In this document: piece by piece, positions 4,195-41,367 of the stretch
How the letters are laid out: each line of letters opens with the position of its first letter
How positions within the stretch are numbered: the first letter of the stretch is position 1
DNA from: Escherichia coli
Lineage (GTDB): Bacteria; Pseudomonadota; Gammaproteobacteria; Enterobacterales; Enterobacteriaceae
Assembly (NCBI RefSeq): GCF_050920415.1
Contig: NZ_CP169309.1
DNA: 64,000 nt
Reading direction: 5' to 3' (one strand)
Notes under the pieces: model-generated
The model's database searches: none
What the model saw: the letters and a program-made list of their open reading frames with translations, nothing else
What the model was told of the DNA's origin: nothing
Program-made: the position numbers and the translations under genes

Positions 4195-4617
4195 ATGAGC
4201 TATGACAAAGCGAAATACCATTTTGACTCGGTTATAGAAGAAGGTTTACCGCTCAGCCAGGCATACATCCATACTGGTTTTTATTTAGGTTGGTTGATTG
4301 ATAATAACTTGTTGGACGAGGAGTTTAAGGAAGATCTCGCTGAATCTCTTGCCCTCTTTACGCGCAGAGAAATAACAGCCCCTCAGCTTTTTGAAGAATT
4401 CGATGGTACTTTGACCGATGAAGAACTTTCGACCCAAGGAAACGCCTTTACTAAACATTATTTTGATTTTGATACAGGCGATTATCTCGAAGACTACTGC
4501 ACCCATCTTGTCAAAGATCTTCCCAGCGAATTCCATGTAAAAGACACATGGGAAAACTATAAAATCGCAGCGAGTTTCATATCCAGACGCTATCAGGAAT
4601 GGCTACAGAACCAATAG
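4195..4617 (+). CDS. hypothetical acidic protein, unknown function (strain-variable insertion between cstA and entH)
   Basis: ORF in the 4138-4617 frame; probable start ATG 4195 preceded by taaggag Shine-Dalgarno (4181-4187); 140 aa MSYDKAKYHFDSVIEEG; surrounding DNA visibly AT-rich; no homolog recognised by eye. Confidence 0.5.
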   Translation: MSYDKAKYHFDSVIEEGLPLSQAYIHTGFYLGWLIDNNLLDEEFKEDLAESLALFTRREITAPQLFEEFDGTLTDEELSTQGNAFTKHYFDFDTGDYLEDYCTHLVKDLPSEFHVKDTWENYKIAASFISRRYQEWLQNQ

Positions 4618-4727: not shown

Positions 4728-5889
<1,162 letters not shown>

Positions 5890-5890
<1 letters not shown>

Positions 5891-6747
5891 CATTTCACCT
5901 CGCGGGAGAGTAGCTTCCACCAGGCATCGATGGTCGGATTTTTCGCCAGCATGACAAAATCGATATCGCCATGCACTTTGCGCCAGCGCGCCGCCAGCGC
6001 CATCATGCGCACCGAATCCAGACCGTAATCAATTAGGTTGTCGTCATCGAACGGCTCATCGGACTCGTCCAGCAACGGCAGGATCACCTCTCGCAGCGCC
6101 GCTTTGGTTGAAGGGATCGGTGCAGGCAATAGTTCTTCGGTCATCACCACCCGGCCAGAACGCCCGGCTACATATTTCAGCGACATCAAATGCTCGTCAC
6201 GACTGAAATCGGCCAGCGCATCCGCCACCATAAACGGTTTAATATCGCGCATAAATGCGTCGGTTGCGGTGGTCATACAGCCAATGTGGGCGTACACCCC
6301 GGTAATAATCAGCTGGTTACGTCCACTCTCTTTGAGCATTTGTTCCAGCGGAGAACGATGAAACGCGCTGTAGCGCCACTTCACCAGCACCGTGTCGTCG
6401 GCATCTGGCGTCAGGCGATCCACCACCTTTTGCTGTTCCGGTGAACGGGTCAGGCCCGGCCCCCACATATCATTCAACAGCGCCCGATCTTCATCGCTCT
6501 GCTCTTTCGGCTGGGCGGTGTAATAAACCGGAATATTGTGCTGTTTGCAGTAGTCGCGTAGTGCCGCAATATTCGCGATCACCTGCTCCATCATCGGGCA
6601 GTTCTCGCCCCAGAAGCTAACAAAATAGTCCTGCATATCATGGATTAACAACGCGGCACGTTGCGGCTCAAAGGCCCAGTTGACTTTATTGTGCGGAATA
6701 TCGTGAGACTCCGGCAGTGCGTAAGCCTGTAATTTTGGAATAGCCAT
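5890..6747 (-). CDS. entB: isochorismatase / aryl carrier protein EntB
   Basis: 285-aa ORF MAIPKLQAYALPESHDIPHNKVNWAFEPQRAALLIHDMQDYF; C-terminal carrier-domain motif LIDYGLDSVRMMAL (phosphopantetheine site Ser). Confidence 0.93.
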
Positions 6748-8380: not shown

Positions 8381-9556
<1,176 letters not shown>

Positions 9557-9584
9557 ATCATCCTCCACAAAATGATAAAGGCTT

Positions 9585-9603
9585 TAATAATGATTATCAT
9601 TTA
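9585..9603. promoter_or_regulatory. Fur box in the divergent entC / fepB promoter region
   Basis: taataatgattatcattta closely matches the Fur consensus GATAATGATAATCATTATC; located between the divergent entC and fepB starts. Confidence 0.75.
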
Positions 9604-9744
9604 TATTTTCGGTCGCTAACCTAAAAGCAAACGAGCACTATGTCAACTCTTGAGGTAACGCAATCTGCAAGTCGGGGTTGCATCTGCTTGTGGTTACAAT
9701 GAAAATGAGAAGCATTAACTTCATTAATAACAGGAAGCTGATTT

Positions 9745-10701
9745 GTGAGACTCGCCCCGCTCTACCGCAACGCCCTTCTTTTAACCGGAATTTTGCTTTC
9801 AGGAATATCCGCAGTTCAGGCTGCCGACTGGCCGCGTCAGATTACTGACAGTCGTGGTACTCATACCCTGGAAAGCCAGCCGCAGCGTATTGTTTCCACC
9901 AGCGTCACCCTGACCGGCTCACTGCTGGCGATTGATGCACCAGTGATCGCCAGCGGCGCGACCACGCCGAATAACCGCGTAGCGGATGACCAGGGTTTTT
10001 TACGCCAGTGGAGCAAGGTAGCGAAAGAACGCAAACTGCAACGTCTCTATATCGGCGAACCGAACGCCGAAGCAGTAGCCGCACAAATGCCGGATCTGAT
10101 TTTAATTAGCGCGACTGGCGGCGATTCAGCGCTGGCGCTATACGATCAGCTTTCCACTATCGCACCAACGTTAATCATCAATTACGACGATAAAAGCTGG
10201 CAGTCGCTGTTAACGCAACTTGGCGAAATTACCGGGCATGAGAAACAAGCGGCAGAGCGGATTGCGCAGTTTGATAAGCAACTGACGGCGGCGAAAGAGC
10301 AAATCAAATTACCGCCGCAGCCGATCACTGCCATTGTCTATACCGCCGCCGCGCACAGTGCCAATCTCTGGACAGCTGAATCAGCACAAGGACAGATGCT
10401 GGAACAACTCGGCTTTACGCTGGCCAGGTTGCCCGCAGGCTTAAACGCCAGCCAAAGCCAGGGCAAACGCCATGACATCATTCAGCTTGGTGGGGAAAAT
10501 CTGGCGGCAGGGTTAAATGGCGAGTCGCTATTCCTGTTCGCCGGTGATCAGAAAGACGCCGATGCGATTTATGCCAATCCACTGCTCGCGCACCTGCCTG
10601 CAGTACAAAACAAGCAGGTTTATGCGCTGGGAACCGAGACGTTCCGACTGGATTACTACAGCGCCATGCAAGTGCTGGATCGGCTTAAGGCGCTGTTCTA
10701 A
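9745..10701 (+). CDS. fepB: periplasmic ferric-enterobactin binding protein FepB
   Basis: 318-aa ORF starting at GTG 9745 ([51 protein letters not shown]) with a signal peptide. Confidence 0.92.
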
Positions 10702-10704
10702 GCA

Positions 10705-11955
10705 TTAACTGTCAGACGCTGTCACCTGCGGCGGCGTCTGGCGAAAACGACGCAACTCTACCAGTACCAGCAACAACAACACGCCGATAATCAACAAACC
10801 AAAACCACTCGCGCTTGCGGAGGCCACCGGCGTCATCATCGCGCCCAGACCGCCCAACAGCGCTGCGCCTATAGCATCGCCCGTCACGTTTTGTGCCGTC
10901 CACAAACCGTTAATCCGTCCTAACATCGCTTCCGGGGTTTGCGTTTGCAGCATTGTGTATTGCAGCAACGAACTAACCGCGCTCAACCAGCCGAACAGCG
11001 CCAGACAAACCACGCCTAAAATCCACATCGGCATCAGGCCAAACAAACCAATGGCGAGGAACGATCCCAGCGTGGAGAGCAGCATCAATAACCCTGGTCG
11101 CGCGCTATGTGCCAGCTTCCCGCTGGTTAACGCGCCAATAGCTGCACCGAGCGGGATCGCCGCATAGAGAAAACCAATCTGTGCCGCCGACATCTGCCAG
11201 TTGTCAGCCAGCGCCGGATACAGTACCCGTACCGCGCTCGCCATCGTCAATAAACCACCCAGCAGCGCAATCCCTCCCACCAGCGGGCTGGCAAGCAGAA
11301 AACGAAATCCTGCCAGTAATGATTTCAACGGATGCTCACGCGGTTGCGGTGGCGGAGGTAGCGCCGGAAGGCTTAACAACGGTAGCAAGGTAATAAACGT
11401 GCCCGCCGCCGCCAGCCCGTAGTTCCAGGCCACACCGCCAGTCGCCAGCAATAAACCGCCAATCATAGGCGAAATCACCGACCCCAGACGCACGGTCAAC
11501 ATGGTGATAGCCCCGGCCTGCATTAAGTTTTCACGCCCTACCAGTGCAGGTGTCGCCGCCAGTAGCGCCGTAACGCCAAGCGATGCGAAAAAACCATCCC
11601 ATAATCCGAGTAAATAGATTGCCAGCAAAGACGGCTCCGGCAGTAACGCGTTCAGGCACAGACCAATGAAGCCAATGCCACAGGTGCCACGCGCCAGCAA
11701 AATCACTTTTTTGCGCTCATAGCGATCCGCCAGCACACCGCCGACCATCAAGCCGACAAACATCGCCCCGCCGGTCAGCGTCACCGAAAGCCCCACCTGC
11801 CAGGTAGAATGCGTCATCATCTGGATCTGCACCGGCACCGCGACGCCGAGCAAACCCAGAGAAACAATAGAGATAAAACGAGCGAGGAATACTGCGCGAA
11901 ACGCCGGGTGCGTTTTCAACAGGCTGAGGTTAAGCAGCCAGGATTGTTTATTCAT
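10705..11955 (-). CDS. entS: enterobactin exporter EntS (MFS transporter)
   Basis: 416-aa polytopic [48 protein letters not shown]; convergent with fepB, divergent from fepD. Confidence 0.92.
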
Positions 11956-12028
11956 TACAATGCCTTGCCATCAAATATTTTAAATACCTATTCTTAGGCT
12001 GCACATGCTAACATATCCAAATAAGATC

Positions 12029-12053
12029 GATAACGATAATTAATTTCATTATC
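12029..12053. promoter_or_regulatory. Fur box in the divergent entS / fepD promoter region
   Basis: gataacgataattaatttcattatc has overlapping Fur-box hexamers (GATAAT / ATCATT); immediately upstream of fepD. Confidence 0.65.
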
Positions 12054-12065
12054 ATGGAAGTTCGT

Positions 12066-13070
12066 ATGTCTGGTTCTGTTGCCGTGACACGCGCCATTGC
12101 CGTGCCCGGATTGCTGTTATTACTGATTATCGCGACGGCATTAAGCCTGCTCATTGGAGCAAAATCACTCCCCGCTTCCGTAGTGCTGGAGGCCCTCTCC
12201 GGCACCTGCCAGAGCGCCGACTGCACCATCGTGCTCGACGCGCGACTGCCGCGTACCCTTGCCGGTTTACTGGCAGGCGGCGCGCTTGGCCTTGCCGGGG
12301 CGTTAATGCAAACCCTCACCCGAAACCCACTTGCCGACCCCGGCTTGCTTGGCGTGAACGCCGGAGCCAGCTTTGCCATTGTGCTGGGCGCGGTGCTGTT
12401 TGGTTACTCATCCGCGCAGGAACAACTGGCGATGGCCTTCGCCGGTGCGCTGGTGGCCTCGTTGATTGTTGCCTTTACTGGCAGCCAGGGCGGTGGGCAG
12501 TTAAGTCCGGTGCGTTTAACTCTGGCGGGCGTGGCGCTGGCGGCAGTGCTGGAAGGGCTGACCAGCGGAATCGCCCTGCTTAATCCCGACGTCTACGATC
12601 AACTGCGTTTCTGGCAAGCCGGTTCGCTGGATATTCGTAATTTACACACCTTAAAAGTGGTGCTGATCCCTGTGGTGATCGCCGGAGCAACTGCGCTATT
12701 ACTGAGCCGCGCACTGAACAGTTTAAGCCTCGGCAGTGACACCGCGACGGCGCTGGGCAGTCGCGTAGCACGCACGCAGTTGATTGGCCTACTGGCGATT
12801 ACCGTGCTTTGTGGTAGTGCGACGGCGGTAGTTGGCCCGATTGCTTTTATTGGCCTGATGATGCCGCACATGGCACGTTGGTTGGTTGGAGCCGATCATC
12901 GCTGGTCGCTGCCCGTCACGCTGCTCGCCACACCTGCCCTGCTGCTGTTTGCCGATATTATCGGGCGGGTGATTGTTCCCGGCGAACTGCGCGTTTCTGT
13001 AGTCAGTGCCTTTATTGGCGCACCAGTGCTGATCTTCCTTGTACGACGTAAAACGCGAGGTGGCGCATGA
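12066..13070 (+). CDS. fepD: ferric-enterobactin ABC transporter permease FepD
   Basis: ORF frame 12054-13070; recognised start MSGSVAVTRAIAVPGLLLLLIIATALSLLIGAKS at 12066; FecCD-family permease. Confidence 0.9.
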   Translation: MSGSVAVTRAIAVPGLLLLLIIATALSLLIGAKSLPASVVLEALSGTCQSADCTIVLDARLPRTLAGLLAGGALGLAGALMQTLTRNPLADPGLLGVNAGASFAIVLGAVLFGYSSAQEQLAMAFAGALVASLIVAFTGSQGGGQLSPVRLTLAGVALAAVLEGLTSGIALLNPDVYDQLRFWQAGSLDIRNLHTLKVVLIPVVIAGATALLLSRALNSLSLGSDTATALGSRVARTQLIGLLAITVLCGSATAVVGPIAFIGLMMPHMARWLVGADHRWSLPVTLLATPALLLFADIIGRVIVPGELRVSVVSAFIGAPVLIFLVRRKTRGGA

Positions 13071-14059
13071 TTTACGTCTCTCGTCGATTAATTATCACCT
13101 GTCTGCTGTTGCTAATAGCTTGTGTGATGGCAAGCGTGTGGGGATTACGCAGCGGTGCCGTCACGCTGGAAACCTCTCAGGTATTTGCCGCGCTGATGGG
13201 TGACGCACCGCGCAGTATGACAATGGTGGTCACCGAATGGCGTTTACCGCGGGTACTAATGGCGCTGTTGATTGGTGCGGCACTGGGCGTCAGCGGCGCG
13301 ATTTTTCAGTCGTTGATGCGTAACCCACTCGGCAGCCCTGACGTAATGGGCTTTAACACCGGAGCGTGGAGCGGCGTGCTGGTGGCGATGGTGCTGTTTG
13401 GTCAGGACCTGACGGCTATCGCGCTGGCAGCAATGGCGGGCGGCATTATCACTTCGCTGCTGGTCTGGCTGCTTGCCTGGCGTAACGGTATCGACACCTT
13501 TCGGTTGATTATTATCGGCATCGGCGTTCGCGCCATGCTGGTGGCCTTTAATACCTGGCTGTTGCTGAAAGCGTCTTTAGAAACGGCGTTAACAGCGGGT
13601 TTGTGGAATGCAGGATCGCTCAATGGCCTGACGTGGGCAAAAACCTCGCCTTCCGCGCCCATCATCATATTGATGCTAATTGCCGCCGCCTTGCTGGTAA
13701 GGCGGATGCGCTTGCTGGAGATGGGCGATGACACCGCGTGTGCGTTAGGCGTCAGCGTCGAACGTTCGCGGCTATTAATGATGCTGGTGGCAGTAGTGCT
13801 TACCGCTGCGGCAACGGCGCTTGCCGGGCCGATTTCCTTTATTGCTTTAGTCGCGCCACACATTGCCCGCCGCATCAGCGGCACCGCTCGCTGGGGTCTA
13901 ACCCAGGCAGCGCTGTGCGGTGCGCTGTTACTGCTGGCAGCCGATCTCTGTGCTCAACAACTGTTTATGCCGTATCAACTTCCGGTTGGCGTCGTTACCG
14001 TCAGCCTCGGCGGTATTTACCTTATCGTCTTGTTAATTCAGGAGTCTCGCAAAAAATGA
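13067..14059 (+). CDS. fepG: ferric-enterobactin ABC transporter permease FepG
   Basis: 330-aa ORF MIYVSRRLIITCLLLLIACVMASVWGLRSGAVTLETSQVFAAL; start overlaps the fepD stop. Confidence 0.92.
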   Translation: MIYVSRRLIITCLLLLIACVMASVWGLRSGAVTLETSQVFAALMGDAPRSMTMVVTEWRLPRVLMALLIGAALGVSGAIFQSLMRNPLGSPDVMGFNTGAWSGVLVAMVLFGQDLTAIALAAMAGGIITSLLVWLLAWRNGIDTFRLIIIGIGVRAMLVAFNTWLLLKASLETALTAGLWNAGSLNGLTWAKTSPSAPIIILMLIAAALLVRRMRLLEMGDDTACALGVSVERSRLLMMLVAVVLTAAATALAGPISFIALVAPHIARRISGTARWGLTQAALCGALLLLAADLCAQQLFMPYQLPVGVVTVSLGGIYLIVLLIQESRKK

Positions 14060-14871
14060 CCGAATCAGTAGCCCGTTTGCGCGGCGAACAGTTAACCCTC
14101 GGATATGGCAAATATACCGTTGCGGAAAATCTGACTGTAGAAATTCCTGATGGTCACTTCACAGCGATTATCGGGCCAAATGGCTGCGGTAAATCCACGT
14201 TACTGCGTACCTTAAGCCGCCTGATGACGCCTGCTCACGGGCATGTCTGGCTGGATGGCGAGCACATTCAACATTACGCCAGTAAAGAGGTCGCACGCCG
14301 GATTGGTTTACTGGCGCAAAACGCCACCACGCCGGGAGATATCACCGTGCAGGAGTTAGTAGCGCGCGGGCGTTACCCGCATCAACCGCTGTTTACCCGC
14401 TGGCGTAAAGAAGATGAAGAAGCGGTAACGAAAGCGATGCAGGCCACAGGAATAACTCATCTGGCAAATCAAAGCGTTGATACCCTCTCCGGTGGGCAAC
14501 GTCAGCGAGCGTGGATCGCGATGGTGCTGGCCCAGGAAACGGCAATTATGCTACTCGACGAACCCACCACCTGGCTGGATATCAGTCATCAGATTGATTT
14601 GCTGGAATTGTTAAGCGAACTGAACCGCGAGAAAGGCTATACCCTGGCGGCGGTACTGCACGATCTTAATCAGGCCTGTCGGTACGCTAGCCATTTGATT
14701 GCATTACGTGAAGGGAAAATTGTCGCTCAAGGAGCACCAAAAGAGATAGTCACTGCTGAACTGATTGAGCGTATTTATGGTTTGCGTTGCATGATCATTG
14801 ACGATCCGGTAGCCGGAACTCCGCTTGTGGTGCCGCTCGGACGAGCGGCACCTTCAACCGCGAAGATTTAA
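14056..14871 (+). CDS. fepC: ferric-enterobactin ABC transporter ATPase FepC
   Basis: In-frame ATG at 14056 (MTESVARLRGEQLTLGYGKYTV) inside the longer 13738-14871 ORF; Walker A GPNGCGKST, signature LSGGQRQR, Walker B MLLDEP; overlaps the fepG stop. Confidence 0.9.
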   Translation: MTESVARLRGEQLTLGYGKYTVAENLTVEIPDGHFTAIIGPNGCGKSTLLRTLSRLMTPAHGHVWLDGEHIQHYASKEVARRIGLLAQNATTPGDITVQELVARGRYPHQPLFTRWRKEDEEAVTKAMQATGITHLANQSVDTLSGGQRQRAWIAMVLAQETAIMLLDEPTTWLDISHQIDLLELLSELNREKGYTLAAVLHDLNQACRYASHLIALREGKIVAQGAPKEIVTAELIERIYGLRCMIIDDPVAGTPLVVPLGRAAPSTAKI

Positions 14872-16001
14872 ACTAAGTGGTCTGCCATGATGGCATCCTG
14901 TTTTCTGGATGCCATGGCATGGCGCAACAGCACGCTACCACAAGCCACCATACCGCCGATCAACGCAGAAAGGATCACGATAATCGCCTTACCCGGACCG
15001 TCTTTTTTTACCGGTAATGACGGACGCAACTGATATTTAAACGGCGTAAAATTCACATCGTTGACATTTGTTTTTGTTAATTGCTCGACTAGATACTGAC
15101 GATTACGTAATTCACCATTCAGCTCCGCAACGTCAGTGACCGCTTTTTCAATTTCCAGTTTACGTTCAATACCGTCTGCGCCGAGAGAAATAGAAAAGTC
15201 GGGGTCATCTTTAACTGCCTGACCATTGCTATAAATGGGCTTTTTAATTCCTGCCGCGTTGGCAATGTCGAGTGAATAATTGAGGCGCTGAATGTTTGCA
15301 TCAAGTTGGTTTTTCGTTTTAATGCGATCCTGAGCCAGTTTTTCTTTTTCAAACTGGGTTTTGATTTCCAGTTTATTACGGACGTTTTCTAGCGACTCTT
15401 TCACCACCAACGCAGAGATATAATCGATATACCCGCTCAAAACGGTCTGCGCCTCTTCACTGGTTGGCGCGGTGAAACTTAGCGTCCAGGAGGCATACAG
15501 TGACGGTTCATCTTTTTTCTTACTGGCATTGTCATCAACCGCTTTCATTTTTTCGCTCAATGCGACGATAGCGCGATGCAAATCCAGTTCGTCGATTTTC
15601 GCCTCTTTTAATTGGTCCATCACATAAGGTGATGAGCGCAGGTACTCTTCCAGTAAGCTAACCGACTGAAACTTCTTGATAAACAGGTTAAATGCTTCTG
15701 TACGATCAATTTTGATATCCAGATCCAGCACACGAAGCTTAGTGAATGTTTTCTCAAGCGCCTGCCACTGAACAGGTTCTGGAGGCGTGACAACCGCCGC
15801 GCTGGTCCATTTTTGCGGCAGGATGAAAGAGATCAGTAAACCTGCGCAGGCAAACGCAAAAACGACCGCCATGACCGTTTTTTTGGCCCGCCATAAAACT
15901 TCAATTAGATTAAGTAAATCAATTTCATTATTACTGGGCGACGCCAGAGGATACTCGGGAAAATGAGCGTCACTTCCCTGTTTAATATTCAGTGATGACA
16001 T
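14868..16001 (-). CDS. fepE: enterobactin-transport / polysaccharide co-polymerase family protein FepE
   Basis: ORF frame 14868-16052; recognised start MSSLNIKQGSDAHFPEYPLASPSNNEIDLLNLIEVLWRAKK at 15999-16001; stop codon overlaps the fepC stop on the opposite strand. Confidence 0.88.
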   Translation of the reverse strand: MSSLNIKQGSDAHFPEYPLASPSNNEIDLLNLIEVLWRAKKTVMAVVFAFACAGLLISFILPQKWTSAAVVTPPEPVQWQALEKTFTKLRVLDLDIKIDRTEAFNLFIKKFQSVSLLEEYLRSSPYVMDQLKEAKIDELDLHRAIVALSEKMKAVDDNASKKKDEPSLYASWTLSFTAPTSEEAQTVLSGYIDYISALVVKESLENVRNKLEIKTQFEKEKLAQDRIKTKNQLDANIQRLNYSLDIANAAGIKKPIYSNGQAVKDDPDFSISLGADGIERKLEIEKAVTDVAELNGELRNRQYLVEQLTKTNVNDVNFTPFKYQLRPSLPVKKDGPGKAIIVILSALIGGMVACGSVLLRHAMASRKQDAIMADHLV

Positions 16002-16167
16002 GCGGTATAACCTGAAATGGGTCCAATAAGAGTAAATCTCCACGGCCCCCACTTTACCAGTTGGTGAGATTTATCCGAAGCTGAAGTTTGTAAATTCCTC
16101 TCACTGAATGCAACATTCACTCTATTTCAGAGAAATATCCGTTAAATTGATAAATTAAATAAATAAT

Positions 16168-16200
16168 AAACCCATAATCATTTATTGTAATTATGGGTTT
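16168..16200 (-). terminator. stem-loop downstream of entF (putative intrinsic terminator)
   Basis: Perfect 11-bp inverted repeat aaacccataat / attatgggttt with an 11-nt loop in an AT-rich context, directly after the entF stop. Confidence 0.5.
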
Positions 16201-16215
16201 ATAGATAATATAAAT

Positions 16216-19200
16216 TTACTTATTTAGCGCCGCACGAATAATTGGCCCTATTTTTTCAAACGCCATCGGCGAGATAATATCCACATGTGCGCAATCCTGA
16301 CGATAGATATCCAGCTCCGCAATCCATGGTGCCCAGGCCCGTTCGGGAGTCATCCCCTCCTGAAGCGTGCGTTCGGCAACAAACAGCGTCGCTTTTCCAT
16401 CAAACGGAACACTATGGGCAGTGGTCAACAAGCGCACTGCATCAGCGTAGTTGCCTTCAATGGTGGTAAACAGCTCCGTTGAAGTATTTCCCTGCTGTGC
16501 CGCCAGGAAGGCCTCGCGCTCGCGGTTAATCTCCGCCAGCACTTCCGGGTCCAGACCATTAGCCTCTTTTTCCTGCCAGTTTTGCGTTTCTGGCGGCCAG
16601 GTATCCAGCAAGCCAAGAAATGCCACCTGTTCGCCACGGGCACGCAGCCGTGCCGCAATCCCCTGCGCCAGCGTACCGCCCAGCGAATACCCCAGCAGGT
16701 AATAAGGGCCGTGCGGTTGTTGTTCAAGTAACGTTGCCAGATGCGCTTCGCAGACTTCATCCAGGTTTGCCGCGGTCTGCATGGGGCCATGAGGGCGCGG
16801 AGACTGGATGCCAATAATCGACCATTGAGGATCGAGATAACGCGAGAGCACGCTAAACTGCCAGGCAAAACCAGATGCTGGATGGAAACAAAACAGCGTC
16901 GGGCCATTACCTTCACGCAACGGCAGGATGGTTTCAAATCCCATGCGCTGGGTGCTGTCTTCTTCACCATCAATAACCGTTGCCAGTTTGGCGACGGTTG
17001 ACGCGACCATCACCTGCCCCGGCGTCACCTGACGGGCAAACTGTCGACTAAGTTGTGCTGCCAGTTTCATTGCCAGTAGCGAATGACCGCCAAGCGCGAA
17101 GAAATCAGCGTCAGCATCCTGCACGTCACAACCCAGCAACGACGAGAATGCCGCGGCGATAATCGTTTCACTGCCCACTTTCGGCGCACGCCCCGGCACT
17201 TGTGCCTTCAGTTCCGGCAACGGTAAGGCTTTGCGATCCAGCTTACCGTTGGCGCTAAGTGGTAACTGTGGCAGTTGCAGTAGAACCACGGGCACCATAT
17301 GCGGAGGCAATTTTTCGCGAAGCTGCGCCTGCAATGCGCTGGTATCCAGCGGCAGGCCCGATTGCGATACAAAATAGCCCACCAGTTGACGCGCATCCCC
17401 CCCGGTGGCTGCCGCCTGATTAATCACACAAGCGTGGGTAACTGCTTGCTCGACATCCGGCAGCGCCTGCATCACACGATCGATTTCGCCCAGTTCAATC
17501 CGCTGACCACGAATTTTTAGCTGATCATCACTACGCCCGAGATACTCCACCGCGCCGTTATCCAGCCAGCGGGCAACATCTCCGGTACGGTACATCCGTT
17601 CACCTGGCGCGAAAGGATCGGCAATAAAGCGGCTGGCTGTCAGATCGGGTCGTCCAAGATACCCCTGCGCCAGTTGAATACCGGTCAGATAGAGATCGCC
17701 TGCCACACCCGGCGGCACCGGATGCATCATCGCATCGAGAATGCGCAGGCCCGTGTTCCACACCGGGTAGCCAATCGGCACACTGCTGCCGCGTACCGCT
17801 GCAAGTTCAGCACCAAAGGCTGGATACCAGCTCACATCCACCGCTGCTTCCGTCGGGCCATAAAGATTATGTAACGGCGCGCCGGTTAACTGCTGCCATT
17901 CGCGACATAAATCGGCTGGTAAGGCTTCTCCGCTACAGAAAACCTGTTTCAACGTCGCGCAACTCTGGCGAGCGGTTTCCGGCGTCAACGAAGCAACAAA
18001 CGCCGCCAGCATCGACGGTACAAAATGCGTGGTCGTTACGCCATATTCAGCAAAGAATTGCTGCATAGCGAGCGGATCGCGGTGCGCTTCCGGTTCAGCC
18101 ATCACCAGTTTCGCCCCGGCAATAAACGGCCAGAAAAACTCCCACACCGAGACATCAAAACTGCACGGCGTTTTTTGGGCAACAACATCTTCGCCTGTGA
18201 GCGGGTAGTGGTTTTGCATCCATAACAGGCGGTTAACGATAGCCGTCTGCCCGACCATCACCCCTTTCGGCCTGCCGGTGGAACCGGAGGTAAAGATGAT
18301 ATAAGCCGTGTGGTGCGGTTGCGAAAGTTGCAGCGGCGCACTGCCCTGCGGTGTAAGCGGGGCGTTATAGCAAAGACTGGTTAAATTGGGGATATCGCTA
18401 AAGCGCGGCAGTTGATCATCGGTGGTGATTAACAGTGACGGACGCGCATCTTCCAGCATCATTTTCAGGCGATCGTCCGGATAGCCCGTATCCAGCGGTA
18501 GCCAGGCCGCACCTGCTTCAACTATCGCATGTAGCGCCATAGTCAAAAAGACCGAGCGCGGTAGTGCCACCGCTACGCTGTCGCCAGGTTTAACGCCGCG
18601 CTCACGCAGCAGATTCGCCAGCGCCACCACCTGCTCGCGCATTTCCCGATAACTGAACTGGTAACGCACATCTGCCAGTGCCGGAGCATCCGGCGTTTTT
18701 GCCGCCTGTTCTGCCACCAGCGCGCTCAGTGTGGTTTCTGGAATCTCAACCTGAGTGGCGTTGATCTGCGCCAGCTGTGCATACTCTTCTGGCAGCATAA
18801 TATCGACATCGCCGCACAACCGCGCCGGATCCGCGGCAAACTGCACCGTCAGCATTTTCAGCCGTTCAGCATGCTGGATTAGCGTTGGCTCATCGTAACG
18901 CTGTTTATTGGCGAGGATCTCAATACTCAAATCACCGTTTTCATCCGGGAAAAGGGCCAGTTCAAGGTCATTAACCGGACCGGTTGCCAGGGTATGGGTT
19001 TGCGCCTGTACCCCCGGAATATCTAACTGATAATCAAATACTTTAATATTGAGCACCGGACCGAACAGCGGTTCCTCTCCCGCCGCGCGCCCGCTGTCAC
19101 GGACAATTTGTTCGGCATCGTAACGTTGATGACGACGCATTTTTTTCAGTTGTGCCGCTAGTCGGGCTGCCAGTTGCGGCAATGTTTCTTGTGCCTCAAT

Positions 19201-20097
19201 GTGAATACCCAACGGCAACACGTTGAGCACGGGTCCGGTAGCCGTCAGCGCCGCTGAGCCCAGTCGACGCATAAAGATAAATCCGGCGGCGTAGTCCATG
19301 CGGTTGCACAATCGCCCCAGCCACAAAGCCGCCAGCGCAAGGGCTATATCGGTACGCTGCACACCTGAAAGTTGCGTAGCCAACTGGCGGAATTCCCCGC
19401 CGTTAAATTCCAGTTTCAGACGCAAAATATCTGCCGAGGCGCTGCGCCCCGGTAAAGGGGCTGGAGAAAGTGACGCGGGCGGTGGTAGTTGACGACGCTG
19501 TTCCGCCCAGAATGCCGCATCACGCTGCCAGGCTTCGCTTTCGCGGTACTGCTGGTACTCTTCCACTACCTCAGCGAAAGGCGTAAACGGCGAAGCCGGT
19601 GTTGGTTCGCCACACCCCCATGCACAGTAAATGTTGGCGATCTGGCGGGTAATGACCGGGAAACTGAAGCCATCGACCAGCAAATGGTGGTAACGCTGAT
19701 ACCAGTACCAGCGGTTATCTGCCACCTGTATCAGTTGATGAAAAACCAGAGGTTTACCGCTATCGACGCGCAGATCTTGTTGCAAATCCGCCTGCATTAA
19801 TGCCTGCGCAGTACCGTGCGGATCAATGTTGGTTCGCAGGTCGATAATTTCTGGCAGTTCGAACGTCAGCGCATCATCGACCCATTGCCAGACTTCGCCG
19901 TTATCTTCCGTAAAACGCATCCGCAGCGTATCTGCTTGCGCTAATCCGGCAACCACCGCGCGAGCCAGTAATGGCGCATCAACATCTCCGGTTAACTCAA
20001 CGTAATGCGCCACGCTCCAGGCGGAGGGTAAATCCGACAGTTTTTCTGCCATCCAGATGCCGGGCTGTGCGGCAACTAAAGGTAAATGCTGGCTCAT
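16216..20097 (-). CDS. entF: enterobactin non-ribosomal peptide synthetase EntF (C-A-PCP-TE)
   Basis: ORF frame 16216-20235; recognised start MSQHLPLVAAQPGIWMAEKLSDLPSAWSVAHYVELTG at 20095-20097; A-domain motifs FTSGSTGRPKGV and YRTGD; PCP motif FFALGGHSLLAMKL; thioesterase GYSLGG. Confidence 0.93.
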   Translation of the reverse strand: MSQHLPLVAAQPGIWMAEKLSDLPSAWSVAHYVELTGDVDAPLLARAVVAGLAQADTLRMRFTEDNGEVWQWVDDALTFELPEIIDLRTNIDPHGTAQALMQADLQQDLRVDSGKPLVFHQLIQVADNRWYWYQRYHHLLVDGFSFPVITRQIANIYCAWGCGEPTPASPFTPFAEVVEEYQQYRESEAWQRDAAFWAEQRRQLPPPASLSPAPLPGRSASADILRLKLEFNGGEFRQLATQLSGVQRTDIALALAALWLGRLCNRMDYAAGFIFMRRLGSAALTATGPVLNVLPLGIHIEAQETLPQLAARLAAQLKKMRRHQRYDAEQIVRDSGRAAGEEPLFGPVLNIKVFDYQLDIPGVQAQTHTLATGPVNDLELALFPDENGDLSIEILANKQRYDEPTLIQHAERLKMLTVQFAADPARLCGDVDIMLPEEYAQLAQINATQVEIPETTLSALVAEQAAKTPDAPALADVRYQFSYREMREQVVALANLLRERGVKPGDSVAVALPRSVFLTMALHAIVEAGAAWLPLDTGYPDDRLKMMLEDARPSLLITTDDQLPRFSDIPNLTSLCYNAPLTPQGSAPLQLSQPHHTAYIIFTSGSTGRPKGVMVGQTAIVNRLLWMQNHYPLTGEDVVAQKTPCSFDVSVWEFFWPFIAGAKLVMAEPEAHRDPLAMQQFFAEYGVTTTHFVPSMLAAFVASLTPETARQSCATLKQVFCSGEALPADLCREWQQLTGAPLHNLYGPTEAAVDVSWYPAFGAELAAVRGSSVPIGYPVWNTGLRILDAMMHPVPPGVAGDLYLTGIQLAQGYLGRPDLTASRFIADPFAPGERMYRTGDVARWLDNGAVEYLGRSDDQLKIRGQRIELGEIDRVMQALPDVEQAVTHACVINQAAATGGDARQLVGYFVSQSGLPLDTSALQAQLREKLPPHMVPVVLLQLPQLPLSANGKLDRKALPLPELKAQVPGRAPKVGSETIIAAAFSSLLGCDVQDADADFFALGGHSLLAMKLAAQLSRQFARQVTPGQVMVASTVAKLATVIDGEEDSTQRMGFETILPLREGNGPTLFCFHPASGFAWQFSVLSRYLDPQWSIIGIQSPRPHGPMQTAANLDEVCEAHLATLLEQQPHGPYYLLGYSLGGTLAQGIAARLRARGEQVAFLGLLDTWPPETQNWQEKEANGLDPEVLAEINREREAFLAAQQGNTSTELFTTIEGNYADAVRLLTTAHSVPFDGKATLFVAERTLQEGMTPERAWAPWIAELDIYRQDCAHVDIISPMAFEKIGPIIRAALNK

Positions 20098-20312
20098 TGC
20101 GCCTCCTGCTGCTGGATGAAATTCGCCGGTGTCAGAGTACGCCAGTGGGCGTCCAGCCACTGCTGGCAGGACGCCTGTGACTGCGGCTGACACACAACAT
20201 CCCAGCCTGCCGGTAAGGCGCACTGTTGCGGCCACAGACTGAATTGCCCCTGCGCATTGCGTAAAATGTAAAACACGCCCTGCGGATCATCGAAGGGATT
20301 ACTGAATGCCAT
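20094..20312 (-). CDS. ybdZ: MbtH-like protein YbdZ
   Basis: ORF frame 20094-20318; recognised start MAFSNPFDDPQGVFYILRNAQGQFSLWPQQCALPAGWDVV; 4-nt overlap with the entF start. Confidence 0.88.
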   Translation of the reverse strand: MAFSNPFDDPQGVFYILRNAQGQFSLWPQQCALPAGWDVVCQPQSQASCQQWLDAHWRTLTPANFIQQQEAQ

Positions 20313-24795: not shown

Positions 24796-24916
24796 TTGAC
24801 AACATCTGGTACGATTCGCCCGCAGCCATCACTGACCACGGGCGAAAGTGTAAAGCAGGTGCCTTACCATCCTGACCTGACAACCGGATATGCGGGGATT
24901 ACTCCCCGCACAACGG

Positions 24917-25069
24917 CTACTTCTTCGGTTCGTAAGCGAGAACAGCCCTGAACTCAATATTACGTTCCTTTACGGTGAACTCACACAGCGAGTCGCCGAC
25001 CAGAAGCGTAAATCCCAGCACTGTCAAACACAGCACTATGACCGCCACAAGGGCATATTTCGTCAGCAT
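24917..25069 (-). CDS. hokE: Hok-family membrane toxin, copy 1 (upstream frame fused in-frame by a 1-nt deletion)
   Basis: 50-aa [50 protein letters not shown] at the end of the 24917-25213 ORF; start codon at 25067-25069. Confidence 0.8.
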
Positions 25070-25418
25070 GTTTATATTGCCTCCATGCGAAGAAGGGACT
25101 ACCATCCAAATTGTCTGGTTTGGAGTGGCGGCCCCAGGGTTGATAGAAATATCTCCTGGGGCTTCATCTTTCCAGACCTCAGAGTTAACCTGAAACCGGA
25201 AAGCTTCAGGCACCCGCCGTTATCTTACCCTTCCTTAGCAAAATGGCTGTTTATTTATACAGTAAATCCTGTTCCGGACTTTTCATTAGTATTATCGCCC
25301 ATGCCAGTTAAACGACATCGCCCGCAGCCATCACTGACCACGGGCGAAAATGTAAAGCAGGTGCCTTACCACCCTGAACTGACAACCGGATATGCGGGGA
25401 TTACTCCCCGCACAACGG

Positions 25419-25571
25419 CTACTTCTTCGGTTCGTAAGCGAGAACAGCCCTGAACTCAATATTATGTTCCTTTACGGTGAACTCACACAGCGAGTCGCCG
25501 ACCAGAAGCGTAAATCCCAGCACTGTCAAACACAGCACTATGACCGCCACAAGGGCATATTTCGTCAGCAT
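25419..25571 (-). CDS. hokE: Hok-family membrane toxin, copy 2
   Basis: 50-aa [50 protein letters not shown]; an overlapping out-of-frame ORF (25483-25716) is in the position expected for mok. Confidence 0.8.
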
Positions 25572-25921
25572 GTTTATATTGCCTCCATGCGAAGAAGGGA
25601 CTACCATCCGAGTTGTTGAGGTTCGGAGTGGCAGCCCCAGGGTTGATAGAAATATCTCCTGGGGCTTCATCTTTCCAGACCTCAGAGTAAACCTGAAACC
25701 GGAAAGCTTCAGGCACCCGCCGTTATCTTACCCTTCCTTAGCAAAATGGCTGTTTATTTATACAGTGAGTCCTGTTTCGGACTTCTGTTGGCAAAACTGA
25801 TCATTGCTCTTAAAACGACATCGCCCGCAGCCATCACTGACCGCGGGCGAAAGTGTAAAGCAGGTGCCTTACCATCCTGACCTGACAACCGGATATGCGG
25901 GGATTACTCCCCGCACAACGG

Positions 25922-26074
25922 CTACTTCTTCGGTTCGTAAGCGAGAACAGCCTTAAACTCAATATTACGTTCCTTCACCGTAAACTCACACAGCGAGTCT
26001 CCGACCAGAACCGTAAATCCCAGCACCGTCAAACACAGCACTATGACTGCCACAAGGGCATATTTCGTCAGCAT
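25922..26074 (-). CDS. hokE: Hok-family membrane toxin, copy 3
   Basis: 50-aa [50 protein letters not shown]; overlapping out-of-frame mok-like ORF 25986-26219. Confidence 0.8.
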
Positions 26075-26515
26075 GTTTATATTGCCTCCATGCGAAGAAG
26101 GGACTACCATCCAAATTGTTTGGGTTTGGAGTGGCAGCCCCAGGGTTGATAGAAATATCTCCTGGGGCTTCATCTTTCCAGACCTCAGAGTAAACCTGAA
26201 ACCGGAAAGCTTCAGGCACCCGCCGTTATCTTACCCTTCCTCAACAAAATAGCTGTTTATTTATACAGTTAGTCTTATTTCGGACTTCTCACTACGCATC
26301 AGATCAACCGAAACTAAACCAATTTTTCCTTCGCCCCTCAATCGTCAAAATTCTCCGCCGCCAGCCAGCTCTGCCATAACTTGGCACATTGCAAAAGTAG
26401 CCAAATTGCTTCAGTAGCAATCAGTTCACCATCACCAAAAAAAGAAACATTCCAGAACTTCCGCATCTCTCCCGGCCGCTCCCACTTCTATACTCAAATG
26501 AAAACGCCAACATAA

Positions 26516-32132: not shown

Positions 32133-35100
32133 TTATTTCCGTACCCGATGTCGGTGCAGCCACATCAGCTTATACGCCGCCGGGATAATAAACAGCGACA
32201 GCAAAGGTGCGGTGATCATGCCGCCAATCATCGGCGCGGCAATCCGGCTCATCACCTCTGAACCTGCCCCCGTTCCCCACAGAATCGGCAGCAGACCCGC
32301 GATAATCACCGCCACAGTCATCGCTTTCGGGCGCACACGCAGCACCGCGCCGTGATATAACGCTTCATCCAGCTTCTGCTCGCTGAATGTTTGCGGATTA
32401 TCCAGGGATGGCTCTGCCTCTATGGCGTGACGTAAATACATCAGCATCACCACGCCAAATTCGGCGGCGACTCCCGCGAGGGCGATAAAGCCAGTGCCCG
32501 TTGCCACGGAAAGATGAAAGTCCATCCACCACAGTAACCAGATGCCACCCACCAGCGCAAACGGTACGCTGCTGATAATCAGCAACGCTTCGCCCACCCG
32601 ACGGAACGCCAGATACAACAGCACGAAGATGATCATCAACGTCATCGGCACCATGAGTTTCAGCTTGTGGTTGGCACGCTCCAGCAACTCGAACTGCCCG
32701 GAGAATGCCACGCTGGTACCCGGTTTTAACTGCACTTTTTCAGCTATCGCTTTTTGCAAATCGTGAACTACCGACACCATGTCACGATCGCGGGCATCGA
32801 TATAAATCCAGCTTGTCGGGCGCGCATTCTCGGTTTTCAGCATCGACGGTCCGGTAGAGACTTTAACGTCGGCCACATCCGCCAGGGTGATTTGCTGCTT
32901 CATCGGCGTCAGGATCGGTAGCTGGCGCAGCGCCTGTGGGCTATCGCGCCAGCTTTGCGGATAACGCAGATTAATTGGATAACGGGCAATCCCTTCCACC
33001 GTTTCACCAACCATCGCCCCGCCCACCGCAGATGTCACAAACAACTGCACATCCGCCACCGTCATACCGTAACGGGCGGCTTTTTCACGGTTGATCTCAA
33101 CGTTGATATAGCGCCCACCTTCCAGACGTTCAGCAAGGGCTGAGGCCACGCCTGGCACCGTTCGCGCCACTTCTTCAATTTGCTCCGCCATCGCGTCGAT
33201 ATCCGCCAGCACAGTGCCGGAAACTTTAATGCCGATAGGGCTTTTAATGCCGGTCGAGAGCATATCGATACGGTTACGGATTGGCGGCACCCACAGATTC
33301 GCCAGCCCCGGCAGACGCACGGTGTTATCCAGTTCCTCAATAATTTTTTCCATGGTCATGCCAGGCCGCCACTGATCCTGTGGCTTAAGCTGGATGGTCG
33401 TTTCTACCATCTCCAGCGGTGCGGAGTCGGTGGCGGTTTCCGCTTTCCCGGTTTTGCCAAACACCCGCGCCACTTCAGGTACGCTCATAATCAGCTTGTC
33501 GGTTTTTTGCAGCATACTCGCCGCCTCCGCTGCGGAAATCCCCGGCAGTGTCGATGGCATATACAACAAGTCGCCTTCATTGATCTGCGGTAAAAATTCT
33601 CCGCCAACTTTATTGAGCGGCCAGAGAACCGTCAGTACCGAAAGCGCCGCCACCAACAGCGTGGTTTTAGGCCAGTGCAGTACTTTCAGCAACAGCGGAT
33701 GATAAACACGAATCAAAAAGCGATTGAGCGGATTACTGCTTTCCGGTGGAATTTTTCCACGGATCCAGTAGCCCATCAGGATGGGGATCACTACGATCGC
33801 CAGCAGCGCCGCGCCCGCCATCGCATACGTTTTGGTGAACGCCAGCGGGCCAAACAGACGCCCTTCCTGCCCTTCCAGAGTGAAGATCGGGATAAACGAC
33901 AGCGTGATAATCAGCAAGCTGATAAACAGCGCCGGCCCCACTTCAACAGATGCATCGGTGATCACCTGCCAGCGCGTTTTATTATCCAGCGTGGCGTCAG
34001 GATGCTGGTGCTGCCACTCTTCCAGCCGTTTATGCGCATTCTCGATCATGACGATAGCGGCATCGACCATCGCCCCGACGGCAATCGCAATACCGCCCAG
34101 CGACATAATATTGGCATTCAGTCCCTGGAAGTGCATGACAATAAAAGCAATACACAACCCCAGCGGCAACGAAATAATCGCCACCAGCGCCGAGCGCACA
34201 TGCCAGAGAAACAGCGCGCAGACAACCGCCACCACAATAAACTCTTCCAGCAACTTGCCGCTGAGGTTGTCGATGGCTCGGTCAATAAGCTGGCTGCGAT
34301 CGTATGTTGTAACTATCTCCACGCCTTCCGGCAGACTGCTTTTCAGCGTTTCCAGTTTGTCCTTCACGGCGGCGATCACTTCACGGGCGTTTTTGCCGGA
34401 GCGCAGGATCACCACCCCGCCCGCCACTTCGCCTTCACCATTGAGTTCGGCAATGCCCCGGCGCATCTCCGGGCCAATCTGGACCTTCGCAACATCACGC
34501 AGATAAACGGGCACGCCATTTTCGCTGGCTTTTAAAACGATGTGATTAAAGTCGTCGAGCGTTTGCAGATAGCCGCTGGCGCGCACCATATATTCCGCTT
34601 CCGCCAGTTCGATCGACGAACCGCCCGCTTCCTGGTTTGAAGCATCCAGCGCATTTTTCACTTCGGCGAGACTGATGCCATACTGCGCCAGGCGCTGAGG
34701 ATCGATAACCACCTGATACTCTTTCACCACACCGCCCACCGACGCCACTTCCGCAACGTCAGGGATGGTTTTCAGCTCATATTTGAGAAACCAGTCCTGC
34801 AATGAACGTAAATCGGCCAGATCGTGCTTACCGCTGCGATCCACCAGCGCGTATTCATAGATCCAGCCAACACCCGTGGCATCTGGCCCCAACTCGGCGC
34901 TGACTCCCGCAGGCAGCTTACCCTGTACCTGGTTGAGGTACTCCAGCACCCGCGAGCGCGCCCAGTACGGATCGGTGCCATCTTCGAAAATGACATATAC
35001 ATAAGAGTCGCCAAACTGCGAGAAACCGCGCACAGTCTTCGCGCCAGGTACTGACAACATGGTGGTGGTTAGCGGATAAGTCACCTGATTTTCAACGATT

Positions 35101-40543: not shown

Positions 40544-40758
40544 TTGGTCAGATAATGCAGTGGATGTTAATTGAATTGAGAATTAGCTATTTCGTCACGA
40601 GAAAAAGCGTAAAATCCGTTTCGTGCAGATGGTGAGTTTTATCAGGGTATGGCGGTAGCGCAACTGCCTTCGGATAATATATATAGTGTGAATGTATACC
40701 CCAGATAACTTCACCATCCAAATATATTCTTGAGATTAAAATATCGTATATTAATCGT

Positions 40759-41238: not shown

Positions 41239-41367
41239 TCAAGTAATTTCCCCTCACGCTGGCGATTGTCGTGGAATGCAGCGAAATTAATTTTATGAAT
41301 AATAAAGTATTAGGGCAGGATTAAGACATAAGATACGGATAAAATTCTCATATACAAAGGATTACGA

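Follow-up and report, generated by a model that had tools for sequence, protein, structure and literature searches.

Genes and junctions of the locus

The window, a stretch of 64,000 nucleotides of Escherichia coli DNA, covers the Escherichia ent/fep/cus region, and its DNA is 94-96% identical to that of K-12. Genes were translated straight from the window and compared with the PGAP annotation of E. coli MFDS1022581 (L001), which is 99.99% identical to the window, and with the curated annotation of K-12 MG1655. PGAP coordinates of L001 were converted to window coordinates by subtracting 501 from the locus coordinate. Gene order and orientation are equal to those of K-12 b0583-b0597 (fes-ybdZ-entF / fepE / fepDGC / entS / fepB / entCEBAH), with the window reverse-complemented, and gene lengths and junctions are equal as well. 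The shared junctions are the convergent 4-nt overlap of fepE/fepC, the 4-nt overlaps of fepC/fepG/fepD and ybdZ/entF, the 1-nt overlap of entB/entA, and the 11-nt overlap of cusS/cusR.

A preliminary description of this DNA named these overlaps, called them ordinary for the cluster, and proposed a check against curated E. coli annotation. The gene coordinates agree with both PGAP and K-12, all of the named overlaps in the ent/fep cluster exist there, and they belong to the modal E. coli overlap classes and are annotated in K-12. These gene overlaps are already known and are textbook operon compaction. A scan of 9500-16400 on both strands against Rfam gave only two sub-threshold chance matches, beta_tmRNA (18.5 bits) and Ysr283 (14.8 bits).

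Co-directional overlaps

The features of the co-directional junctions are as follows.

12066-13070, + strand: fepD (334 aa), FecCD-family permease in the ABC importer for ferric enterobactin (translation, PGAP/K-12 coordinates, Pfam FecCD)
13057-13063, + strand: Shine-Dalgarno (SD) sequence GAGGTGG ahead of fepG (sequence)
13067-13070, + strand: fepD stop/fepG start, ATGA overlap (sequence)
13067-14059, + strand: fepG (330 aa), second permease subunit (translation, PGAP/K-12 coordinates; third-position-biased substitutions relative to K-12 over its full length, including 13738-14055)
14056-14059, + strand: fepG stop/fepC start, ATGA overlap (sequence)
20094-20097, - strand: ybdZ stop/entF start, ATGA overlap (sequence, PGAP, K-12)
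5888-5892, - strand: entB stop/curated entA start, TGATG, 1-nt overlap (sequence, PGAP, K-12)
39095-39105, + strand: cusR 3' end/cusS start, 11-nt overlap ATGGTCAGTAA (sequence, K-12)

The 4-nt overlaps described for fepD/fepG/fepC and for ybdZ (20094-20312)/entF (16216-20097) are each an ATGA, and the overlap described for cusR (38422-39105)/cusS (39095-40543) is present and 11 nt long. At entB/entA, the overlap and its span had been given correctly, but the motif had been read as ATGA and the curated junction is a 1-nt TGATG. The - strand reads AAATGATGG there, with the second ATG as the curated start of entA. An ATGA does occur at 5890-5893 through an in-frame ATG 3 nt upstream of the curated entA start, and that start is unannotated.

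There are nine co-directional junctions in the ent/fep operons. Three have a 4-nt overlap and one a 1-nt overlap, fes/ybdZ and entA/entH have 2-nt gaps, entC/entE and entE/entB have gaps of 9 and 13 nt, and entF and fepE are separated by 214 nt. Compact overlaps were thus rightly reported for the cluster, but their extent was overstated by "throughout", with four of the nine junctions overlapping.

The fepD/fepG 4-nt overlap ([AG]TGA) is kept in 80 of 80 Enterobacteriaceae loci from more than 15 genera and the fepG/fepC ATGA in 79 of 80, a count made for these two junctions. Their conservation shows that neither is accidental. Among unidirectional gene pairs of E. coli, the ATGA (-4) and -1 arrangements are the most frequent spacings (PMC10666635). 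Such overlaps support termination-reinitiation, and genes for subunits of heteromeric complexes are enriched for them (Huber et al. 2023, PMC10666635).

From the sequence, it can be inferred that fepD, fepG, and fepC are translationally coupled. FepD, FepG, and FepC are subunits of one ABC importer made from one mRNA, on which the stop of each gene overlaps the start of the next (ATGA) and the SD lies within the final codons of the upstream gene. A ribosome that ends one gene, or that unfolds the mRNA, would allow the next gene to start at once. The ybdZ/entF (ATGA), entB/entA (TGATG), and cusR/cusS (11 nt) junctions are of the same kind. An SD of its own also precedes each overlapped start, and independent initiation may be enough. 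A literature search on fepDGC coupling and on the fepC/fepE overlap found nothing specific to either.

The start of fepC

Two starts can be considered for fepC, the annotated ATG and a GTG that opens a longer mechanical ORF.

14056-14871, + strand: fepC (271 aa), ABC ATPase subunit (translation, PGAP/K-12 coordinates, Pfam ABC_tran, FhuC 7lb8 E=1e-64)
14040-14044, + strand: fepC SD, AGGAG, located in the 3' end of fepG 11 nt ahead of the ATG (sequence; invariant in 80 loci)
13738-14055, + strand: 5' extension of the mechanical ORF 13738-14871, inside fepG and noncoding in that frame (substitution phase, in-frame stops elsewhere, no Pfam match)

The preliminary description placed the start at 14056 and considered the long ORF an artefact, and both points hold. 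PGAP and K-12 each annotate 271 aa, and the ATG and its AGGAG are invariant in 80 loci. In the 271-aa FepC, ABC_tran (PF00005, E=2.8e-34) starts from residue 24. In the solved paralogue FhuC (7lb8, E=1e-64), residue 25 aligns with FepC residue 21, and the N-termini of FhuC and of the 271-aa FepC differ by no more than 4 residues. With ABC_tran preceded by about 20-25 residues and a length in the range of about 250-275 aa, FepC is an ABC-transporter ATPase of the FhuC/FecE/BtuD type.

The alternative is a 377-aa fepC product from GTG 13738, which would share 322 nt with fepG in a different frame. The long frame is open in the window, which has 108 stop-free codons upstream of the fepC ATG (59 in K-12), and also in a few relatives. 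However, of the 18 substitutions between the 318-nt extension and K-12, 17 fall at fepG third positions, which are the first positions of the extended frame. K-12, O157:H7, and E. albertii have an in-frame stop 60 codons upstream of the fepC ATG, nine other genera (nine loci) have one two codons ahead of it, and many other genera carry in-frame stops inside the extension. A Pfam search of the extra 106 aa gave no domain, and no SD was found ahead of GTG 13738. The substitution phase, the stops, the absence of a Pfam match, and the FhuC N-terminus together identify the extension as fepG coding sequence and not as part of fepC, and the 377-aa product is effectively refuted. By the sequence evidence, fepC begins at ATG 14056, and the ORF from GTG 13738 is an open out-of-frame stretch inside fepG.

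Longest-ORF calling would mis-start fepC, fepE (16052 in place of the true 16001), entF, and entA in this lineage. The substitution phase alone is a quick way to settle such start-codon cases.

fepE and the entF-fepE spacer

14868-16001, - strand: fepE / wzz(fepE) (377 aa), regulator of O-antigen chain length, start ATG 16001 (translation, PGAP/K-12 coordinates, Pfam Wzz)
16166-16202, - strand: in the entF-fepE spacer, an AT-rich hairpin of 15 bp with a T-run after it (fold -15.9 kcal/mol, z -3.6)

A fepE start at GTG 16052 was rejected, with 16002-16052 lacking codon periodicity and carrying an indel relative to K-12. The hairpin at 16166-16202 is terminator-like and separates fepE from the fes-ybdZ-entF unit. 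In Salmonella, fepE has its own promoter and transcription start site as well as an RcsB site in the entF/fepE spacer (PMC7913699).

The convergent fepC/fepE junction and its stem-loops

The 3' ends of fepC and fepE meet without intergenic DNA, and each gene carries a predicted stem-loop in its final codons.

14868-14871, no strand: TTAA, interlocked fepC/fepE stops (sequence; K-12 619384-619387; invariant in 13/13 Escherichia sequences)
14829-14852, - strand: hairpin A, GGTGCCGCTC-GGAC-GAGCGGCACC, in the fepC final codons; candidate stem-loop of the fepE transcript 3' end (fold -35.4 kcal/mol, z -3.9)
14884-14923, + strand: hairpin B, in the fepE final codons; candidate stem-loop of the fepDGC transcript 3' end (fold -25.7 kcal/mol, z -4.0)
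10699-10707, no strand: convergent fepB/entS junction, stops 3 nt apart (TAA-GCA-TTA; TAAGCATTA) (sequence, PGAP, K-12)

fepC stops at the TAA of 14869-14871, and the TTA of 14868-14870, read on the opposite strand, gives the fepE stop. The overlap at 14868-14871 is exactly as first described. Both genes have Pfam domains and third-position-biased substitutions, and their junction is a true stop/stop overlap. The tetramers that allow such an overlap are CTAA, TTAA, CTAG, and TTAG, and convergent overlaps number 58 in E. coli (PMC2174442). The 13 Escherichia sequences in which TTAA is invariant range from E. albertii to E. coli, and a full-length alignment across the junction was obtained for 5405 of 5426 E. 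coli genomes. In one E. coli strain (L086), fepE ends five codons early, the overlap is gone, and there is an 11-nt gap.

A second near-abutting convergent pair, fepB/entS, is also present and was absent from the preliminary description. Other genera mostly have spacers of 27-130 nt with REP-like hairpins at that junction.

Hairpin A starts 16 nt past the fepE stop on the - strand RNA, and hairpin B starts 13 nt past the fepC stop on the + strand RNA. The 10-bp stem of hairpin A on the - strand RNA is kept in all seven Escherichia sequences folded. The mismatch of the K-12 type is a G.U pair on the - strand RNA (a G-C pair in the window) and a C/A mismatch on the + strand, so hairpin A is fully paired in all seven only on the - strand RNA. 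The core of hairpin B, ATGGCATCC-TGTTTTCT-GGATGCCAT at 14890-14915, is kept in Escherichia species, and hairpin B is weakened in some E. coli strains (L085 and L086). In short windows of seven codons and 13 related sequences, none of the seven degenerate codons of hairpin A varies (53% gene-wide) and none of the seven of hairpin B (56% gene-wide). By invariance, the 8-codon window of hairpin A comes no higher than 20th among 263, and for hairpin B just 4 of 368 windows reach the same invariance.

No U-tract follows either hairpin. Both are stable stem-loops without a U-run that lie soon after a stop, as protective stem-loops do. An intrinsic terminator after fepC was considered and rejected as the main signal; the only candidate was a weak 5-bp stem at 14883-14895 followed by TCCTGTTTTC, and neither E. 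albertii nor E. whittamii keeps this stem.

The spacer form in Salmonella, Citrobacter, and L006

Salmonella and Citrobacter have the same convergent fepC-fepE pair in the same genomic context as the window. In these genera and in L006, a divergent 'E. coli' representative with a third fepE allele, the fepC and fepE stops are 30-54 nt apart (83-395 nt in a few loci), whereas the window has no spacer. All of the 10 spacers that were read hold hairpins, for example AAAAAGCCGGATAATCGCTATCCGGCTTTTT in Salmonella. The spacer hairpins of Salmonella and L006 are flanked by A- and T-tracts, the make-up of a bidirectional intrinsic terminator between the two stops. This arrangement is not found in the window, whose hairpins lie in coding sequence and have no U-tracts.

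FepC differs in length along with the junction. It has 264-267 aa in nearly all loci of the spacer form (273 in one) and 271 aa in the window, and about seven extra C-terminal residues are present in the Escherichia TTAA form. The tail reads AAPSTAKI in the window and is encoded by ACG GCA CCT TCA ACC GCA AAT AGT in K-12.

Among these sequences, the TTAA overlap is specific to the main fepE allele of Escherichia. By outgroup parsimony only, the spacer-less junction would be derived in Escherichia; the genome scan gave few Escherichia species and no representatives of E. fergusonii, E. marmotae, or E. ruysiae.

Where the transcripts may end

With the stops interlocked, each transcript has to end within the partner gene, for want of intergenic DNA. 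By the most likely route, RNA polymerase would pass the fepC or fepE stop, and Rho would terminate on the untranslated antisense RNA. Exonucleases could then trim the RNA back to a stem-loop lacking a U-tract, hairpin B for fepDGC and hairpin A for fepE. Rho-dependent transcripts are known to end just past stable stem-loops without U-tracts (Dar & Sorek 2018, PMC6061677), and hairpins A and B may likewise mark the transcript 3' ends. The excess of C over G downstream of the fepC and fepE stops, a composition that favors Rho loading, is mild and not decisive. The supplementary tables examined from a Term-seq study (eLife 2021) have no entry for fepC, fepE, or entS, but do list a 3' end in the fepB leader.

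Taken further, it can tentatively be proposed that Escherichia lost the intergenic bidirectional terminator of fepC/fepE and that the two stem-loops in the partners' final codons, constant at synonymous sites, took over as 'interlocked' terminators. We regard this as possible but doubtful. If it were true, each coding sequence would double as the 3'-end signal of its partner, and enterobactin import and the control of O-antigen length could also influence each other in an iron-dependent way.

The TTAA overlap could instead be functionless, a neutral by-product of a deletion that removed the spacer or of an allele replacement, after which the FepC tail ran on to the next stop and the hairpins were incidental. 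The FepC C-terminus is indeed free in length (264 to 273 aa across genera), fepE is cassette-like and strongly divergent, its allele types sharing about 75% aa identity, and homology breaks exactly at the fepC 3' end. The early fepE stop of L086 fits as well, and many 4-nt overlaps have been explained by neutral stop-codon drift (PMC2174442). Less easily accommodated are the invariance of the tetramer in all 13 Escherichia sequences, the lack of synonymous variation in both hairpins next to variable flanks, and the strand-specific G.U pattern of hairpin A. A neutral origin is likewise no better than a tentative reading.

Transcripts could end by head-on polymerase collision together with nascent stem-loops, an 'overlapping bidirectional terminator', and not by Rho. 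Terminators of this kind lie between hundreds of convergent E. coli gene pairs, need a stem-loop, differ from intrinsic terminators, and are Rho-independent (bioRxiv 10.1101/2022.10.23.513370), and at this junction the 31 nt around TTAA lie between two stem-loops. Collision presupposes simultaneous convergent transcription, which is not assured here; fepDGC is expected to be Fur-repressed, and the Salmonella fepE has a promoter and RcsB site of its own. We consider this route unlikely. The junction could even be a regulatory device, in which read-through of fepDGC during iron starvation acts on fepE as antisense RNA or by transcriptional interference and ties iron status to very long O-antigen chains, or the reverse. 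Read-through RNA would be perfectly complementary to the 3' end of the partner, and Escherichia is without the insulating terminator that Salmonella keeps, but hairpins placed right after both stops favor insulation over read-through, and such a device is very improbable.

Comparison with known systems

The ent/fep junctions are very probably normal, already annotated Escherichia gene junctions, and this explanation as a whole includes the fepC start together with the proposed coupling and termination route. The sole mildly new point is comparative, namely that the fepC/fepE pair occurs in two forms among close enterics. One form with a terminator and one without intergenic DNA make a clean natural pair for studying termination at convergent overlaps. 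The payoff would be modest, as such termination is already being studied genome-wide.

The fepC/fepE junction resembles the transcript ends of Dar & Sorek (2018, PMC6061677) in having stable U-less stem-loops just downstream of both stops on the transcribed strand. It differs in that the candidate stem-loops are embedded in the coding sequence of another gene. The co-directional junctions resemble those of Huber et al. (2023, PMC10666635) in their ATGA and TGATG overlaps within operons, in the membership of FepD, FepG, and FepC in one complex, and in the SD placed in the 3' end of the upstream gene. The 11-nt overlap of cusR/cusS is the exception, as it lies outside the -8 to +6 window of that paper.

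Identity and gene content of the window

An ORF map, and a megablast search of 5,426 complete E. coli genomes with 13000-16300 as query, showed that the window holds the ent/fep enterobactin region, in the orientation opposite to that of K-12. The genome of E. coli MFDS1022581 is nearly identical (99.99%, four mismatches over 1-29800) and collinear up to 49949, while K-12 MG1655 is only 94-96% identical. By megablast, identity over fepG-fepE exceeded 95% in only 18 of 5,417 complete genomes of E. coli, so the window derives from a divergent lineage of Escherichia and may belong to a cryptic clade recorded as E. coli. Genes were placed on the window from curated K-12 and from the PGAP calls for MFDS1022581 (subtracting 501 from the locus coordinate gives the window coordinate), and each was translated. 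All mapped genes were intact and had the same lengths as in K-12.

Several further features were seen elsewhere in the window. The segment 3936-4741, between cstA and entH, has no K-12 counterpart and carries a gene for a 140-aa DUF7832 protein (4195-4617, + strand). The entC-fepB intergenic region (9557-9744) is approximately 184 nt shorter than in K-12 (32541-32725 of the MG1655 locus); the additional K-12 sequence sits about 30 nt before fepB. In Term-seq tables, a strong 3' end (624680) falls 170 nt upstream of fepB in K-12. A second near-abutting convergent pair, fepB/entS, was missing from the junctions listed in the preliminary description. Its 3-nt gap (TAA-GCA-TTA, 10699-10707) is as in K-12; the spacer is 27-130 nt in most other genera, often with REP-like hairpins, and a few genera have a 4-28 nt overlap. 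At 24816-26291, a unit of roughly 500 bp is repeated three times in tandem (about 94-95% mutual identity), each copy with a hokE-type toxin gene. PGAP also calls three hokE genes in MFDS1022581, and at the same site K-12 has one hokE followed by IS186. Between cusS and nfrB, an insertion relative to K-12 (40522-42687) has three small genes, one for an SMI1/KNR4 (SUKH) family protein (40759-41238) and two for hypotheticals, and it resembles an orphan immunity-gene cluster. Collinearity with MFDS1022581 is lost after envY (~49950-64000). The window there has ompT and genes for an alpha/beta hydrolase, a methyltransferase and a serine invertase. These are followed by - strand tail genes of a lambdoid prophage (for tail-fibre assembly, a tail fibre of 988 aa, lom and a J of 1137 aa); at this place MFDS1022581 has tRNA-Arg and sfm fimbrial genes instead.

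Gene junctions

The following junctions were found.

12066-13070, fepD, ATGA junction with fepG
13067-14059, fepG, ATGA junction with fepC
14056-14871, fepC, stop TAA at 14869-14871
14868-16001, - strand, fepE, stop TAA read from TTA at 14868-14870
20094-20097, ybdZ/entF, ATGA overlap
38422-39105, cusR, 11-nt overlap with cusS
39095-40543, cusS, 11-nt overlap with cusR
fes/ybdZ, gap of 2 nt
entA/entH, gap of 2 nt
entC/entE, gap of 9 nt
entE/entB, gap of 13 nt
entF/fepE, gap of 214 nt

The fepC/fepE junction (14866-14873) reads ATTTAAAC, with TTAA (14868-14871) common to both coding sequences; K-12 has the identical 4-nt overlap (619384-619387). The preliminary description of these overlaps was correct, with two exceptions. 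It had called overlaps present throughout the cluster, which is too strong given the five gapped junctions. It had also read entB/entA as ATGA. An overlap does lie at 5888-5892, where the - strand reads AAATGATGG, but curated entA begins at the second ATG, giving a 1-nt TGATG overlap. The ATGA (5890-5893) requires the in-frame ATG 3 nt upstream. Spacing to the AGGTG Shine-Dalgarno (SD) sequence, 5 nt for the curated ATG and 2 nt for the upstream one, favors the curated start. The view that these junctions are ordinary is supported by their agreement with annotation and by their spacing class; they were already known.

In E. coli, a spacing of -4 (ATGA) is the most frequent among unidirectional pairs, followed by -1, and spacings of -8 to +6 account for 24% of such pairs (PMC10666635). 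The co-directional ent/fep overlaps thus belong to the commonest class. Such overlaps support termination-reinitiation, with an enrichment among heteromeric-complex subunits (PMC10666635). Among 80 loci from Escherichia, Citrobacter, Salmonella, Klebsiella, Enterobacter, Kosakonia and others, the fepD/fepG [AG]TGA overlap was kept in all 80 and the fepG/fepC ATGA in 79. Each overlapped start retains its own SD within the 3' end of the upstream gene. From this conservation, the retained SDs and the overlap class, we infer on good grounds that translation of fepDGC is probably coupled. A literature search found no paper testing coupling for fepDGC.

Start codons of fepC, fepE, and fepD

The fepC start is at 14056, as had been proposed, because substitution phase, stops in other lineages, invariant start signals and protein comparison agree independently. 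Substitutions relative to K-12 concentrate at third positions in the fep genes, as expected, with counts at codon positions 1/2/3 of 6/1/47 in fepC and 6/1/46 in fepD. Of the 18 substitutions in 13738-14055, 17 are at fepG position 3, equivalent to position 1 of an extended fepC frame, so this segment evolves as fepG only. The extension is stop-free for 108 codons in the window lineage; in K-12, O157:H7 and E. albertii it is interrupted by an in-frame stop 60 codons upstream, and nine other genera have a stop two codons before the fepC ATG. This ATG and the AGGAG 11 nt upstream were invariant across all 80 fepC loci, which came from one genome per species. In the 377-aa ORF, Pfam ABC_tran starts at residue 130, corresponding to residue 24 of the 271-aa FepC, and FepC residue 21 aligns opposite residue 25 of the solved paralogue FhuC (7lb8). 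The first 106 residues of the longer ORF had no Pfam match. A 377-aa fepC from 13738 is therefore effectively ruled out by phase, lineage stops and this missing match.

By the same logic, fepE starts at ATG 16001, since 16002-16052 lacks codon periodicity and has an indel relative to K-12. The mechanical fepD ORF begins at ATG 12054, four codons upstream of the annotated ATG 12066, with no substitutions relative to K-12 across 12054-12066.

The convergent fepC/fepE overlap

Only four tetramers can hold two opposed stops, TTAA among them, and 58 convergent overlaps are counted in E. coli (PMC2174442), so the fepC/fepE overlap is of a known class. TTAA was invariant in 13 of 13 Escherichia sequences, from E. 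albertii and E. whittamii through diverse E. coli, and 5,405 of 5,426 E. coli genomes aligned end to end across the junction. The overlap thus appears to be fixed in Escherichia.

It was absent outside Escherichia among the recovered loci (one genome per species). In most genera, fepE was not found after fepC. Where it was (Salmonella, Citrobacter, Pseudocitrobacter and a few others), the two stops are usually separated by 30-54 nt (83-395 nt in a few loci) and FepC has 264-267 aa in nearly all and 273 in one. All fepC-fepE spacers read hold a hairpin, such as AAAAAGCCGGATAATCGCTATCCGGCTTTTT in Salmonella. In mainstream Escherichia the spacer is gone and FepC is about seven codons longer (LGR|AAPSTAKI in the window), with no lengthening of FepE. 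Comparison with outgroups suggests that the overlap is a derived, Escherichia-specific state.

Two E. coli loci differ. One species representative, SCPM-O-B-8794 (4790-6043 of its locus), has an Escherichia-like fepDGC (91% DNA identity), a 265-aa FepC, a 36-nt spacer with a terminator (AAAAAATGGAGCGCGTTACAGCGCTCCATTT), and a third fepE allele with ~75% aa identity to every other allele type. This suggests that fepE was replaced like a cassette, with the break at the 3' end of fepC. In strain DG351-2 (1172-1184), fepE stops five codons early and an 11-nt gap replaces the overlap.

Hairpins and transcript ends

With no intergenic DNA left, each of the fepC and fepE transcripts must end inside the partner gene. 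Folding placed a strong hairpin just beyond each stop on the transcribed strand, and a further hairpin lies upstream of fepE.

14829-14852, - strand, hairpin A, GGTGCCGCTC-GGAC-GAGCGGCACC, starts 16 nt past the fepE stop
14884-14923, hairpin B, core ATGGCATCC-TGTTTTCT-GGATGCCAT, starts 13 nt past the fepC stop
16166-16202, - strand, AT-rich 15-bp hairpin with T-run, between entF and fepE

Hairpin A scored -35.4 kcal/mol for an 84-nt segment (z -3.9) and hairpin B -25.7 kcal/mol (z -4.0). Both were kept in the seven Escherichia sequences folded. Hairpin A of K-12-type sequences contains a C/A mismatch on the + strand that is a G.U pair on the - strand, so its full 10-bp stem survives only in fepE-sense RNA. 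Across 13 Escherichia sequences, synonymous variation among degenerate codons was 53% in fepC and 56% in fepE, and none of seven codons varied in hairpin B (binomial P ~0.003) or inside hairpin A. Only four of 368 windows were as invariant as hairpin B, two of them hairpin B itself; the eight-codon hairpin A window, including the flanking Pro, ranked 20th of 263. In some strains hairpin B is weakened or fepE is shortened by five codons.

Transcripts that depend on Rho have precise 3' ends directly behind stable stem-loops that lack U-tracts (PMC6061677). Hairpins A and B have no U-run after them, and both would fit such ends; the C-over-G bias downstream is mild. Alternatively, a collision-driven 'overlapping bidirectional terminator' (bioRxiv 10.1101/2022.10.23.513370) may operate at fepC/fepE. 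Term-seq tables had no entry for fepC or fepE, and an Rfam scan found nothing. The entF-fepE spacer of Salmonella contains a promoter/TSS dedicated to fepE and an RcsB site (PMC7913699). Together with the T-run hairpin in this spacer of the window, this makes it likely that fepE is transcribed as a separate unit, converging on a presumably Fur-controlled fepDGC operon.

Relatives of the Salmonella/Citrobacter type have a bidirectional terminator at the site where Escherichia has the overlap. The comparison makes a small addition rather than a discovery: the overlap would be specific to Escherichia, located at its relatives' terminator site, with conserved hairpins inside the coding sequences.
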